64,000 bases of DNA from Deltaproteobacteria bacterium (GTDB taxonomy: Bacteria > Myxococcota_A > Polyangia > HGW-17): NCBI GenBank assembly GCA_016937155.1, contig JAFGWM010000032.1, positions 11,902-75,901 on the forward strand. The letters run 5' to 3'. Position numbers and translations under genes: made by a program. This document shows, in pieces, positions 48,001 to 52,341 of this stretch (position 1 is the first letter of the stretch; every line of letters starts with the position of its first letter). The notes beneath the pieces were generated by a model. That model did not search any database. It saw nothing but the letters and a program-made list of their open reading frames with translations, and was not told where the DNA came from.

Positions 48001-49068
48001 GGTATAATTGCCTATGGTGATTCTTCAAAAAACTCTGAGTTGATGAAAATAATTTCAGATACAGATCCTGATTACTACATTCGAAAAAATACTGAGAAAC
48101 TATTGAGTTTTGTTATTGGTAAAAAAGATCTTCCATTTTTAATAAGTCATTATTTGAACGAAAAAAATGAAAGTAAATCACGTTGGCTTAGAGGAATTCT
48201 GGAGACTTCAGGAGTAATAAAATCTGCCCAAAAAAATTTGCAGTTAGGACTTGATTTTAATTCATCATCCCTTGAGTCTGAGGTCTTTAATCTGATTAAA
48301 TCTCAGACGGGCAAAAAACTGATTGAACATGGTAATTTTATTAATATTTCAGGAAAAATTCAATCAGTCAGGCTGATTACGGAAATTGTTGAAAAATCCC
48401 ATCGAAACTGTCCGGATTTGACTGGATATTTAAATCTTATGGAAAAGCAACTGACATCGAAGAATTTAAAAAATTTTATTTCCATTTGGAATGATGATCT
48501 AAGTTTAAGGGGTATGGATCGTATATGCAACAGTGATACAAGAAAGTATGGAATCCAGTTATGGAATAAAATGAGGAAACAAATAATTTCCAGTATTTAT
48601 ATTTCAGAGTGGTCAGTGAAAAGACGACTGTTTTTAAGTGACCTGGTTTCCGGCAATATTACTCTCATGCAGTTTGTAAACTCCAATGAAAGTATTATGT
48701 TTAAAAAAAGTGTACTGACATCATTGGGATATATAAAGTCTGATTATAAAACAGGTGGTTTCTCCGGATTAAAAAATACACCACCTGAATTGAAATTTAT
48801 TGTTTATAAACTTTATCTCGCAAAGAACTTTGACAGAAAAATTGTTGAGCAAATTCTTAAGGGAGAAGATTTCCCACTTTCTATTGCAGTAATGGAAATG
48901 ATTTCAGAAAGGAAAAGAGGTTTTGATCTTCTGCAGGGAGTTTTATCAGGAAATTCTACCACCCTTGCAACCAAAGCTTATGAAATCCTGAAAAAGAACA
49001 ATAAAAAAGAGCTGTTGTTAAAAGTATCACCAAAACAGATATATTTTCTTGAATCATTAAAGAATTAA
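45025..49068 (+). CDS. Large secreted TPR/HEAT-repeat protein
   Basis: Signal peptide from ATG 45025, roughly 800 aa of TPR-like repeats, HEAT-like C-terminal region. Confidence 0.85.
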   Translation: MMKFFVTIISTVILLGPNYSLAWKVKRNQFNPAMISRYKGMLSSAPDDGFAFRKLVGLYTTYSSMDALIIEYRRALKRDPENYSLNVVIGRLYLKIDRFDEAVSHLEKAQKKDPARFESYKNLGNVFVRKRKFIKAKGYLDKALSRVKGKVIRQRLLKELVRLTVIGGDIKNGVRYFDMLLALRPGDFQTRWDFASLLVQGMHFEKAMKQYKKLYTMSYGDSRRKVEILKAMGDTSERMGEDKKAVKTYWKAMSMTASGHWIRRELVNKLVSISRRRDELHLLINDFKRRWGKPTGFQYSIMAKIYGEIGQFDKAAELYRRAIRNEPSNVDYRSELIALLEKSGASPEVIIREQKALADAAPGQIKFSIELAKRYEKAGNKNKALSITRNLLAKNPSDAGLYLALADLYAQWNKPDKVIKMYEKLVVLEPLDYEHYVNLGQQYWGRGKRKKAISTWKKILKKGMFPVKEDGFFIISGLFLETQQFNEAKNYVEMAISGNPQNTKYLFLRSQVEIKLRQPEKALLTLEKALKISLKSNDVVTVKKIRKNLLKLWKDMGVLEKKLSERLRKWRTSNISQGMFLAEGFTTAGNVTRAEKIYLRMRKANGAMSEPLLGLISLYESIGKYGALIKLLEEAVKLIPHRARDFYEQLSNTWAILGNDIKARQYLRKALEKGARDSKSWAKAGDLAIKLEDYRGAIKAFLEAIRLDPYEMDYYFSLASLYVQLAEVTSASKVYYSVISRSSEDDLVEKAARAACDLDELTGNLGKLEKVLHPLSFVYAHRSVFGKMLLEVYKRYVPWLYSQIRNSTSIKEKKYLTREIHRLRTRALKPLLESLTGEESLADKEIARSLLAQLGNPNSAVPIIRLAKRMFEQGNKKNIQGKPTKLSSGEKDFIRKSVYIASEFKTNEISRELKFFASQETDKVIQVIALRGLSLINTSPSWFATFLNKYPSVSHATAGCAVAAREKRYHSKIYSIIRDTKIPPMIRIGCMKGIIAYGDSSKNSELMKIISDTDPDYYIRKNTEKLLSFVIGKKDLPFLISHYLNEKNESKSRWLRGILETSGVIKSAQKNLQLGLDFNSSSLESEVFNLIKSQTGKKLIEHGNFINISGKIQSVRLITEIVEKSHRNCPDLTGYLNLMEKQLTSKNLKNFISIWNDDLSLRGMDRICNSDTRKYGIQLWNKMRKQIISSIYISEWSVKRRLFLSDLVSGNITLMQFVNSNESIMFKKSVLTSLGYIKSDYKTGGFSGLKNTPPELKFIVYKLYLAKNFDRKIVEQILKGEDFPLSIAVMEMISERKRGFDLLQGVLSGNSTTLATKAYEILKKNNKKELLLKVSPKQIYFLESLKN

Positions 49069-50036
49069 AATTCATTTACTTCTGAAAAATGTCTATAAAA
49101 ATTGTAACGTACCAGCAGGTCATGCCAGGATTTTGCAAGTGTACTGGATGAAATTGAAATTTTTCTTCGAGTCTGAGGATGTGACTGAGGATCCGGAATG
49201 ATTATCTGCTGAGCCCACAGGAAGTGGTCAGAAAAACCTTCTGTTTTTTCTCCCCCGTAAATGATATCTCCCACTATAGGTGTTCCAAGATGAGCCAGTT
49301 GAACCCTAATCTGGTGACGCCTTCCAAATTTAGTTACCATTTTTACCAGAGAATGATTTTTAGAGTGATCAATAACTTCCAGATAACTTACACAACGTTT
49401 TCCTTCTGCATCAGAACCCGGATTATATTTCACTCTATCTTTTGAAGACGGATAATTACTTATGGCACCTTCCAGCCAGGTATCTGAACCCGGATGTCCT
49501 GTAACAACGGCATAATATGTTTTTTGTATATGATGATTTGCATAATATTTTCGATAGCGTTCTATTATTTCATGGTTTTTTCCAACTAAAATCAATCCGC
49601 TTGTAAGGTTATCTAGACGATTAATTATTCCTCCTTCTCTAGGGAGTGCAAGTTCTCCAACAAGATCGGGAAGTAATTTTGTTACAGCACCTGCAAGGGA
49701 AGGAAAATCACCTGGATATCTTGGAAGTGTTGGAAGTCCAGGGGGTTTTTCTATAACCATAAAATTAGTTCCATCCATTACAATCTTCAACTCAGGGGCT
49801 TTTTCAACAGATGGGACCCATCCGGAATCATCAGGGGGGATACGGGCAACACAAATAAGAGAATCTTTTTTTATGCGCTGACCTTTCTTAAGACTTTTAC
49901 TGTTCAGAGTGATGTAATTTCTTTCCAGATACAGTTTGATGATCTGGTTTGTAACACCTGGAAAATGTTTTTTTAGAATATCTTCAATACGTTTTCCATG
50001 CTCAGATTCAGATGTAATAAAATTGTTGGATGTCAT
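49065..50036 (-). CDS. RluA-family RNA pseudouridine synthase
   Basis: EKPPGLPT, INRLDNLTSG, KTYYAVV, GRRHQIRVQLAHLGTPIVGD; GGAGGA RBS before ATG 50036. Confidence 0.88.
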   Translation of the reverse strand: MTSNNFITSESEHGKRIEDILKKHFPGVTNQIIKLYLERNYITLNSKSLKKGQRIKKDSLICVARIPPDDSGWVPSVEKAPELKIVMDGTNFMVIEKPPGLPTLPRYPGDFPSLAGAVTKLLPDLVGELALPREGGIINRLDNLTSGLILVGKNHEIIERYRKYYANHHIQKTYYAVVTGHPGSDTWLEGAISNYPSSKDRVKYNPGSDAEGKRCVSYLEVIDHSKNHSLVKMVTKFGRRHQIRVQLAHLGTPIVGDIIYGGEKTEGFSDHFLWAQQIIIPDPQSHPQTRRKISISSSTLAKSWHDLLVRYNFYRHFSEVNEF

Positions 50037-50073: not shown

Positions 50074-50295
50074 AAAAAAAAGAAAGGTAACCCCGGTCCG
50101 GCTCTCGAATAAAATCTACATACTCCGGAGGAGAGGAGAAAAAAGAAGAATCGAGATTGAAGAAGGTAAGAGCCTTCTGGACCGGGGGTAAAGAAGAATT
50201 GAGATTGAGAAGATCAATCGTGCGAAGTTTTTTCTCCTCCGGAGAGAAAATGCAATCGCCAAAGAGTGGATATTTCCACCATCTTCACCCGATAC
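50074..50295 (-). ncRNA. Candidate structured non-coding RNA or cis-regulatory leader of unknown class
   Basis: GC-rich intergenic segment with several stems (CCCCGGUCC/GGACCGGGG; GGGUGAAGA/UCUUUACCC; 12-bp CUCCGGAGGAGA pairing), an upstream promoter and a 3' U8 tract. Confidence 0.55.
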
Positions 50296-50300
50296 TTAAA

Positions 50301-50329
50301 GTTATAGTTATTATTCTACGGTAAGTCAA
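50301..50329 (-). promoter_or_regulatory. Sigma70-like promoter driving the structured RNA
   Basis: Minus strand TTGACT (50329-50324)-N17-TATAAC (50306-50301). Confidence 0.65.
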
Positions 50330-50363
50330 GTATTTTTGGAAAATTATATCCACACTGGATTTT

Positions 50364-51209
50364 TTAATTTTCTTTAATGAATTCTAAGCATTTTTGATAT
50401 ATTTCTCTTTTACTCACATCATAAAAATCCACTAAAAGTGAAGAAATTGTTTTTGGAGAGACTCCTGATTCAAGAAACTTGATTACCTGATTATTTAATG
50501 GTGGCAAGATGTTTTGAGTTTGTTGCTGTTTGTTTTCAATGATTATTACAAACTCGCCCTTTTTTGTAATTCCACTCAGAGTGTAATTTAATTCGGAGCA
50601 TTTACAGTGGATGAATTCTTCATATAACTTTGTGAGTTCTCTTCCAATCGTTATTTTAGTATCAGGGTGGAAAACAGAAACAATATCAGTTACGGTTTTT
50701 TCTATTCTATGGGGTGATTCATAAAGAACAATGGTTTCACCGATGCCTGAAATTTGTTTTAACCGTTTCTGGCGTTCTCCGCTTTTTGGAGGAAGAAAAC
50801 CTTCAAAGTGGAAATGGCTGCTGTCAAGACCACTTCCGCATAAAGCAGCTGTTAGTGCACTTGGACCTGGAATTACTGCATATTTTAAACCTCTGTTTAT
50901 AATTTCTCTGACGATAATGTATCCGGGATCTGATATTGCCGGGGTTCCAGCGTCTGAGATTAAAGCAATCTTCTTTCCGGTTTCAATCAGATCACATATT
51001 TCATGAGATCTTTTGACCTCATTTCCTTCAAAGCATGAAATTATTTCCGGAAACTTAATTTGGAGATGAGATAACAGCATTCTGGCAACTCTGGTATCTT
51101 CAGCTGCAATTAAATCCACTGAGCTAAGAACCTCAACCAGTCTTGAAGAAACATCTGCAATGTTTCCTATTGGTGTGGCGCAGATATAAAGGCATCCTTC
51201 TTCTGACAT
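50364..51209 (-). CDS. rsmI: 16S rRNA (cytidine1402-2'-O)-methyltransferase RsmI
   Basis: LYICATPIGN, AAEDTR, ISDAGTPAISDPG, IPGPSA, YESPHR, RELTKLYEE. Confidence 0.95.
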   Translation of the reverse strand: MSEEGCLYICATPIGNIADVSSRLVEVLSSVDLIAAEDTRVARMLLSHLQIKFPEIISCFEGNEVKRSHEICDLIETGKKIALISDAGTPAISDPGYIIVREIINRGLKYAVIPGPSALTAALCGSGLDSSHFHFEGFLPPKSGERQKRLKQISGIGETIVLYESPHRIEKTVTDIVSVFHPDTKITIGRELTKLYEEFIHCKCSELNYTLSGITKKGEFVIIIENKQQQTQNILPPLNNQVIKFLESGVSPKTISSLLVDFYDVSKREIYQKCLEFIKEN

Positions 51210-51249
51210 TATGTGCTCCATATTTGAAAATTTGAAAATTTAGGCGGTT

Positions 51250-52341
51250 TTATTCGAAGCCCAGAGCTATATTAACATTTTCTCCCAACTGATCTTCAAG
51301 AAACTCCCTGAGTTTGGTAAGAAGGCGTTTTTCCAACTGTCTGGCTCTTTCTCTACTGATACCGTATCTGTCTCCAATCTCCTTCAGTGTGAGAGGTTCA
51401 TCACTGAGAAGCCGTTCTCTCATAATAACAAGATCTCTTCCGCTGAGATCTTTGGCAAACAGTTGAATTTTTTCAGAAACAAGTTTATGAATTTCGTTCG
51501 CTCCGGCAATTTCATCAGGTGTTTCTATGGGGTCTGGCATGACATCCATCATGGATCTGGAATCACCCTCACTGCTATCAAGTGGAGTGGAAAGACTCAG
51601 ATCAGAAGATCCCAGTCTTTTTTGCATTTCCTTAACTTCTCTTTCAGGGACATCCAGAGCCGTTGCAAGTGCCTGAGATGTAGGCACAATGCCCTTTGCT
51701 GTGAGAGCTTCCTGTTGTTTATAAAGGTTGAAAAACAGTTTTCTTTGAGCCTGTGTTGTTCCGATTTTTACAAGACGCCAGTTGTTCAGAAGATATTTGA
51801 GAATATATGCTCTTATCCACCAGCTTGAGTATGTGGAAAGCTTAACACCCCGGTATGGATCATATTTATCAACAGCCTGTATAAGACCTACGTTACCTTC
51901 CTGAATCAGATCTAGAAGATTGTAATGAGCTTTTGCATATTCATGGGCAATTTTCACGACAAGTCGGAGATTTGAGGTAACCAGTTTACTGGCACTGGCA
52001 GGATTCTTATTGTCATAATAATCACTGGCAATTCTAAATTCCTCATCAGGAGTTAAAAGAGGATATCTTCTTACCTGATGTATATATGCTCTAAGAGGAT
52101 CATATCTTACGAGACCGGAACTTTCATCTTCATCTGAATAAGAAGAAGTTTCTCTGTTATCTGTGGATTCATCAGTTGATAGAAATTCTGTTTCTCCTTC
52201 AAGGATTTCTTCATCTTCAGAATCATCCTCAAACTCCACCTCATTATCTGATATTTCAACAATATTATCTACTGATGATTTCAGAACCAAATTGTTGTTT
52301 TTTTCTTTATTTTCCTGGTTTTTCTTCTTCCCACTCGCCAT
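51250..52341 (-). CDS. rpoH: RNA polymerase sigma-32 (RpoH-family) factor
   Basis: SNLRLVVKIA, DLIQEGNVGL, RpoH box TTQAQRKLFFNL, region 4 TLKEIGDRYGISRERARQLE; acidic N-terminal extension. Confidence 0.88.
   Translation of the reverse strand: MASGKKKNQENKEKNNNLVLKSSVDNIVEISDNEVEFEDDSEDEEILEGETEFLSTDESTDNRETSSYSDEDESSGLVRYDPLRAYIHQVRRYPLLTPDEEFRIASDYYDNKNPASASKLVTSNLRLVVKIAHEYAKAHYNLLDLIQEGNVGLIQAVDKYDPYRGVKLSTYSSWWIRAYILKYLLNNWRLVKIGTTQAQRKLFFNLYKQQEALTAKGIVPTSQALATALDVPEREVKEMQKRLGSSDLSLSTPLDSSEGDSRSMMDVMPDPIETPDEIAGANEIHKLVSEKIQLFAKDLSGRDLVIMRERLLSDEPLTLKEIGDRYGISRERARQLEKRLLTKLREFLEDQLGENVNIALGFE

Follow-up and report, generated by a model that had tools for sequence, protein, structure and literature searches.

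Within a window of 64,000 nucleotides (nt) of contig JAFGWM010000032.1, from a Myxococcota genome, we have characterised an element of ~220 nt on the minus strand, between rsmI and a gene of the RluA family of pseudouridine synthases. On balance this is probably a new, abundant and independently transcribed structured non-coding RNA (ncRNA), whose leaky end would also make it the leader of the RluA-family gene. The element recurs with its promoter in 14 of the 23 genomes of the order to which the window genome belongs, and its principal helices covary.

In the mechanism that we propose, a near-consensus sigma-70 promoter belonging to the element itself would transcribe a lineage-restricted, stably folded ncRNA, in which a helix of 12-14 base pairs (bp) between a purine block and a CU block would join into the loop of a 16-bp stem (T1+T2), with a small hairpin (H3) between, to give an H-type pseudoknot. 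Its action would most likely be in trans, that of a structural RNA present in abundance. Its end, consisting of a weak stem and a pyrimidine tail, would let polymerase read through, and in the family of the window genome the same transcript would double as a 5' leader expressing the divergent RluA-family gene, a second role that would follow from read-through at the weak tail. The layout can be likened to the arrangement of 6S RNA and ygfA.

Conservation and fold of the RNA

The window lies on contig C76 of its 4.1-Mb source genome (G000); f1 to f4 denote families, and g1 to g5 genera, within the same order. Covariance model R1, derived from 11 sequences, matches the window RNA at G000:C76:61976-62195 (window 50075-50294; 139 bits, E 4.9e-30) and finds one strong full-length copy in each carrier genome, these being G000, 12 of the 13 other f1 genomes and the single f2 genome, with none in the five of f3 or the three of f4. 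The f1 genome in which R1 finds no match is 88% complete, and rsmI was likewise not found there. A shorter core model (R2) recovers the same 14 genomes at E ≤ 4.6e-15. The carriers, all metagenome-assembled, are uncultured Myxococcota from five genera in two families; the GC content of the locus ranges from 38 to 68% and the length of the RNA from about 170 to 230 nt in the relatives. Searches under stricter filters in 151 genomes sampled from the class and 151 from the phylum yielded no further convincing match: one in G055 (E 0.024) was discarded because all the helices are missing, and other R2 matches above E 0.1 are weak (e.g. G020, E 0.55).

Simple sequence comparison reaches less far, BLAST in 41 relatives identifying only G000 and G001, so that synteny and covariance models were needed beyond these. 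The G001 homologue belongs to the same genus; it shares 72% identity, an unchanged 30-nt block and the promoter. An exact scan with the most conserved 21-mer of the RNA gave one true homologue among eight loci on public genome contigs (again G001) and none among seven on metagenome contigs, the other seven genome-contig loci being either unrelated DNA or LSGGEK coding sequence of SMC type. By coincidence, to be borne in mind in word-based searches, SMC-like genes of Ignavibacteriaceae and Clostridia contain the same 21 letters where they code for an LSGGEK-type signature motif. The setting is itself conserved: rsmI is present in 13 of 14 f1 genomes, with the orthologous RluA-family gene ~250-440 nt downstream in 11 of 13 loci, and within g4 the RNA is 80-86% identical, compared with 60-67% for the flanking coding DNA, which points to selection. 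In G003 one contig carries the full RNA (L044:1501-1705) and a truncated rluA start, and another (L066:1500-1666) a near-identical 3' half of the RNA followed by a full rluA-like open reading frame (ORF) of 340 codons; we considered this partial second match as a paralogue and read it instead as a split or mixed-strain assembly.

The elements of the RNA discussed below are, in the window and all on the minus strand:

50074..50295, minus: RNA gene, ~220 nt (start predicted from the -10 box to +/-2 nt, end from the U tract)
50290-50282 with 50194-50186, minus: GGGUGAAGA / UCUUUACCC, closing helix of the 5' domain (domain 1) of the first-pass annotation
50266..50279, minus: hairpin H1, GUGGA-AAUA-UCCAC, in a variable 5' extension
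50233..50244, minus: purine block CUCCGGAGGAGA, 5' strand of the pseudoknot, partner 50134-50123
50203..50219, minus: hairpin H3, GAUUGA-UCUUC-UCAAUC
50179..50187, minus: T1 5' strand CCCCGGUCC, partner GGACCGGGG at 50099-50091
50169..50174, minus: T2 5' strand GGCUCU, partner AGAGCC at 50105-50100
50123..50134, minus: CU block UCUCCUCCGGAG, 3' strand of the pseudoknot, inside the T1/T2 loop
50091..50105, minus: T2 3' strand AGAGCC and then T1 3' strand GGACCGGGG, directly abutting

The minimum-free-energy (MFE) fold of the minus strand (-70.1 kcal/mol, z -3.41, none of 200 shuffles being as good) reproduces the two-domain architecture that had been put forward in a first-pass annotation of this DNA, made from the letters only. 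The opposite strand reaches -73.1 kcal/mol (z -4.72), and folding energy alone cannot pick the strand because the complement folds at least as well. The minus strand is favoured by the excess of G-U over A-C cells in the alignment (40 against 14), together with the orientation of promoter and tail.

Pairing and covariation were counted on a 14-sequence model alignment (the window RNA and 13 homologues), in which 90.1% of 606 cells are paired and 33 of 46 pairs have changed on both sides. None of 500 column shuffles matched any of five structure measures, and sliding the partners by 1-3 columns lowers pairing to 37-59% and covariation to 0.08-0.19, compared with 0.419 in register. The conserved core comprises T1 (9 bp), T2, H3 and the long-range pseudoknot helix of 12-14 bp, all four of which covary. 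T1 is 100% paired in all 14 sequences, with five pairs changed on both sides, and is also 100% paired in an unfitted MAFFT alignment of 11; T2 is 87.6% paired, with three such pairs, and the two together form a 16-bp two-part stem. H3 is 91% paired, all five pairs of its main run having changed on both sides. Conservation sits mainly in these helices, and few unpaired columns are invariant.

The helix between the purine and CU blocks lies outside the model, and on this alignment, which was not fitted to it, it is 84-95% paired with 8 of 12 pairs changed on both sides. Folded sequence by sequence, all 14 homologues give a purine/CU duplex of 12-18 bp at -19 to -26 kcal/mol (z -4.1 to -7.0, none of 300 shuffles being as good). 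This helix crosses T1/T2, because the CU strand lies within the T1/T2 loop and the purine strand outside it. The RNA thus has the two crossing helices of an H-type long-range pseudoknot, each with eight covarying pairs (T1 and T2 being 100% and 88% paired). A triple helix between the 3' tail and the purine-pyrimidine duplex was considered and discarded, since, by eye, the registers mismatch outside the window. The purine blocks of the five genera are as follows:

g1 (window): CUCCGGAGGAGA, partner CU block UCUCCUCCGGAG
g2: CACUCGAAAGGGA, CU-rich partner in the T1/T2 loop
g3: UCUGAAGGAG, CU-rich partner in the T1/T2 loop
g4: CUUCAGAGGAGA, CU-rich partner in the T1/T2 loop
g5: CCCUCGGAGGG, CU-rich partner in the T1/T2 loop

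The individual helices of the first-pass annotation fared unevenly in the homologues. The letters of GGGUGAAGA/UCUUUACCC, GUGGA/UCCAC, GAUUGA/UCAAUC and CCCCGGUCC/GGACCGGGG, and the U8 tract, are present where it placed them, and T1, GAUUGA/UCAAUC and the position of the GUGGA hairpin are supported by the relatives. Its remaining hairpins (UUUUCUC/GAGAAAA, AGAAGG/CCUUCU and UCUCGA/UCGAGA) are not conserved but specific to the window, being 55-63% paired against 41-64% for slid controls; it missed both T2, which takes the place of the AGAAGG/CCUUCU hairpin, and the 12-bp pseudoknot. H1 keeps its position in g1, g2 and g4, where it is 82.7% paired with six covarying pairs on an alignment fitted to that helix; the 5' closing helix and H1 are 82-83% paired on an alignment fitted to both, and the whole 5' extension, H1 included, is absent from g3 and g5.

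That the locus is not an RNA gene at all, but a small protein gene, an inverted-repeat element acting as DNA or a chance fold, is scarcely credible and we disfavour it. Such an explanation could appeal to the equally good folding energy of the opposite strand, to ORFs of 44-55 codons on both strands and to the use of the conserved 21-mer as LSGGEK-type coding sequence in unrelated SMC/ABC genes. However, no ORF or reading frame is conserved in the RNA, even within g4, indels are not multiples of three, and by eye the alignments contain no conserved start codon after the purine block. There is one full-length copy per genome with no mobile-element context; G-U exceeds A-C, a long-range, non-nested helix covaries, and promoter and tail are oriented and conserved.

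Promoter, transcript end and flanking genes

The surroundings of the RNA in the window are, again on the minus strand:

50364..51221, minus: rsmI (16S rRNA C1402 2'-O-methyltransferase), upstream of the RNA (TIGR00096 262 bits, above cut-off)
50330..50350, minus: A/T-rich tract upstream of the -35 box (76% A+T across the 25 nt preceding that box)
50301..50329, minus: sigma-70-type promoter TTGACT-N17-TATAAC (TTGACT 50329-50324, 17-nt spacer, TATAAC 50306-50301)
50074..50090, minus: pyrimidine tail UUACCUUUCUUUUUUUU, presumed leaky terminator tract, including U8 at 50081-50074
49065..50036, minus: divergent RluA-family pseudouridine synthase gene, downstream of the RNA (ATG 50036-50034)

The promoter TTGACT-N17-TATAAC lies exactly where the first-pass annotation had it, and the flanking genes it named, rsmI and an RluA-family gene, are borne out by profile scores. 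The rsmI stop codon and the -35 box are 35 nt apart, and a consensus scan lists no terminator between them. The same scan omits the promoter from its list because its rule requires T at the last -10 position. All 11 family loci examined, across 38-68% GC, retain the A/T tract and boxes of the form TTGAC(T/G)-N17-TA(T/A)A(A/T)(A/C), and the f2 genome (G014) has TTGACA-N17-TAAAAA, so that in every one of these loci the RNA carries its own -35 and -10 boxes at a 17-nt spacing. The AAAATTTTTCGGAAAAATAC tract is retained in g4 genomes whose loci have 56-68% GC; by comparison with the UP-element consensus, the A/T tract may be called UP-element-like.

Only five TTGAC[ATG]-N17-TATAA[ACT] sites occur in the 4.1-Mb genome, the promoter of the RNA among them. 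Another of the five (TTGACA-N17-TATAAA, A/T-rich upstream), outside the window, drives a tRNA Thr-Tyr-Gly-Thr cluster at G000:C76:196133-196542. The 6S gene of the same genome has a similar -35 context, AAAAATTAC-TTGCAA. The promoter thus appears to be a near-consensus sigma-70 promoter of the stable-RNA type, shared in kind with the tRNA cluster and 6S, from which we infer strong, stable-RNA-like transcription.

At the 3' end, a tail of the form CC(U/C)U(U/C)C(U/C)UUUU after T1 is common to all five genera, and the stem ahead of it closes a domain of ~90 nt. The locus had been called unusually GC-rich, which holds against its immediate flanks (0.43-0.44 compared with 0.24-0.33) but not against nearby coding DNA (up to 0.47). 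Directly upstream of rsmI is a gene for an RpoH-like sigma-32 factor (window 51250-52341, minus strand; NF005143 268 bits, above cut-off).

The product of the RluA-family gene scores 89 bits with Pfam PF00849 and 144 bits with TIGR00005, under the cut-off of 192.7, and retains the catalytic-type NRLD...TSG motif. It is one of seven PF00849 genes in the genome. In the 151-genome class sample, orthologues of 155 bits or more are confined to f1 and f2, the best match in any other genome reaching 128 bits. The best RluD-like copy of the genome is a second RluA-family gene in the window, at ~42.6-43.6 kb on the plus strand (match G000:C76:54773-55231; TIGR00005 254 bits, RluD model 219 bits). A sub-threshold match to the RNase P model lies antisense within the RNA-adjacent gene (window 49361-49441, plus strand; 21 bits, E 1.6e-4) and is probably noise.

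Leader, free-standing RNA or partner of the enzyme

The orthologous RluA-family gene follows the RNA directly in 12 f1 genomes, from four genera. Of 11 loci measured, 9 have 14-32 nt between the end of T1 and the start codon (the window has 52 nt and G001 125 nt), and 10 are too short for a second promoter between RNA and gene. Because T1 ends so close to the start codon, the gene must in most genomes be transcribed through the RNA. In contrast G014, the only f2 genome, has a vWA gene on one side of the RNA and a convergent gene on the other, with no co-directional gene downstream; a different contig carries its RluA orthologue (42% identity), which follows another ORF at a distance of 47 nt, and RNA matches near it do not improve on E 1.1. 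The constant upstream, co-directional placement of a riboswitch or leader thus holds in the 12 f1 genomes and fails in G014, a single genome. The first-pass annotation had settled on a novel small RNA (sRNA) or leader RNA, and this evidence supports that proposal and suggests that both halves of it hold, the element standing free in G014 and acting as leader in f1.

That the RNA works purely in cis, as an attenuator or 5' leader of the RluA-family gene, is in our view unlikely, although this stays a serious rival because the free-standing case comes from one assembled genome. By analogy, an S4-like N-terminus might for example let the enzyme attach to the pseudoknot and thereby control either translation or the extent of read-through at T1. 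The adjacency in f1 and the transcription through the RNA speak for this, as do a pseudoknot and a stem with a U-rich end, which are the usual layout of leaders. In the window the purine block recurs in the ribosome-binding site (RBS) of the gene, UCCGGAGGA (50049-50041, minus strand), to which 9 nt of the CU block are complementary; the repeat is peculiar to the window genome and is not seen at 10 other loci. No conserved pairing between RNA and translation start region was found in 11 loci (z -1.55 to +0.99), and with no nucleotide common to the pseudoknot helix and T1/T2, no switch is evident. The G014 element lacks a co-directional downstream gene and the G014 RluA orthologue lacks such a leader, a tRNA-class promoter would be odd for a modification enzyme, and the scarcity of invariant unpaired positions is unlike ligand-binding leaders.

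A trans-acting regulator that pairs with the Shine-Dalgarno regions of targets through the CU block and 3' tail, the purine block serving as a built-in mask, seems to us quite improbable. The purine block is indeed Shine-Dalgarno-like in the five genera (GAGGAG, AAGGAG, AAGGGA, GGAGGG) with a CU-rich partner, the MFE fold of g4 displays CACUCUCCUCU in an 11-nt hairpin loop, the CU-rich single-stranded tail is conserved, and an own promoter, a terminator-like end and an order-level distribution are typical of bacterial sRNAs. But half of the CU block varies between genera with internal complementarity kept, and since the block varies while its internal complement follows, this points to a structural helix rather than a target-constrained seed. 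An intramolecular helix of 12-14 bp at -19 to -26 kcal/mol would moreover out-compete short target pairings, and Hfq was not found. A search for targets could not discriminate, because any strong RBS matches. For the free-standing RNA with a leader function that we prefer, a protein-binding scaffold is a likelier role than seed pairing, though we say so with low certainty.

More specifically, the RNA and the adjacent divergent synthase, a supernumerary enzyme with an S4 domain, could be dedicated partners, the RNA being its specific substrate, or a scaffold or guide-like cofactor that directs or titrates it. In favour are the seven PF00849 genes of the genome, the better RluD-like copy at another locus, the confinement of orthologues to the two families with the RNA and the adjacency in four genera. 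We consider this doubtful, and the co-occurrence amounts to one evolutionary event confounded by relatedness, since it belongs to a single clade. If true, the two would work together as an RNA-protein pair in bacterial ribosome biogenesis or RNA modification, encoded between two rRNA-modification genes.

Several points weigh against an abundant ncRNA that is also a leader. The covariation rests on five lineages, 7 of the 14 sequences being near-identical g4 copies, and related sequences can outdo shuffles without any structure. Pseudoknot and T1/T2 may form together or alternately. The abundance is read from the promoter sequence; in the one metatranscriptome of the same study no contig fell on the stretch, which speaks neither for nor against a transcript. 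Moreover, at the predicted 3' end the U run begins 6-9 nt beyond the stem (9 nt in the window), where the consensus scan calls no terminator. A cis-regulatory role would account equally well for adjacency to the RluA-family gene across four genera, whose enzymes share only ~36% identity. One metagenome-assembled genome provides the free-standing case, and mis-assembly or an unseen small gene may be responsible there. As to protein partners, Hfq was not found, and for the product of the one CsrA gene present the RNA offers no array of GGA sites.

Known RNA families and wider meaning

Searched against Rfam 15, the whole window gave no match at gathering score, as the first-pass annotation had anticipated in proposing a novel RNA; a local search at E ≤ 10 gave five matches (E 1.6-9.3), all far under their thresholds and RF00013 not among them, and the loci of six relatives gave none at E ≤ 1. 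The same annotation had set aside RNase P RNA, tmRNA, signal recognition particle (SRP) RNA and 6S RNA, rightly so, for the genome encodes each of these elsewhere: 6S (RF00013) at G000:C76:239449-239635 (68.1 bits), SRP RNA on C82 (56 bits), RNase P RNA at C76:179726-180075 (304 bits) and tmRNA on C42 (191 bits), all four above cut-off, with no match to any of the four models at the candidate. Sponges of the CsrB/RsmZ type are defined by many GGA motifs in hairpin loops; here, by eye, only the GGA/GGGA of the purine block is conserved, other GGAs being lineage-specific or in stems, and a CsrA sponge was rejected. Searches of the open full-text literature and of the main texts of motif-discovery papers found no description of the RNA.

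Among characterised RNAs, 6S offers the closest organisational likeness: ssrS, which encodes it, is co-transcribed with ygfA by read-through, and the present RNA resembles it in its strong stable-RNA-type promoter, a length of ~200 nt and a downstream protein gene that read-through would reach. The folds differ, 6S being a rod of closing stem, large central bubble and terminal stem, and the present RNA a pseudoknot with a two-part stem and a small hairpin. The leader of the Escherichia coli alpha operon is a pseudoknot bound by ribosomal protein S4 in an autoregulatory manner, and here too a pseudoknotted RNA lies immediately upstream of a gene whose product has an S4-like RNA-binding N-terminus (NCBIfam alignments of this enzyme to RluD begin at residue 19). 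Unlike that leader, the conserved fold excludes the start codon and RBS, and the G014 element occurs without the gene.

Pseudoknots occur in RNAs of the raiA motif, which are transcribed as units of their own. This motif is reported as a highly structured RNA of ~200 nt, found by covariation, with a recurrent gene neighbour and no established function (PMC10861870), features in which the two are alike. The present RNA is in another phylum, is much more restricted, to 14 genomes in a single order of Myxococcota, and neighbours an RluA-family synthase. Nearer in phylogeny, the Pxr sRNA of Myxococcus xanthus is likewise a lineage-restricted myxobacterial small RNA, described as three stem-loops (PMC5684412, PMC10217877), in place of which the present RNA has a long-range pseudoknot and a two-part stem.

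Annotation of the locus is warranted so that a 'gap' of 300 nt is not taken for empty. Should the RNA prove merely a lineage-specific sRNA or leader, it would be a routine, clean addition to catalogues of RNA families. As it stands, it adds a well-supported family to the few mid-sized, intricately folded bacterial RNAs of unassigned function, from an uncultured and poorly studied order of the Myxococcota, and it offers a tractable case in a tRNA-class promoter kept over a 30-point range of GC, a covarying pseudoknot and a fixed place beside a clade-specific pseudouridine synthase.

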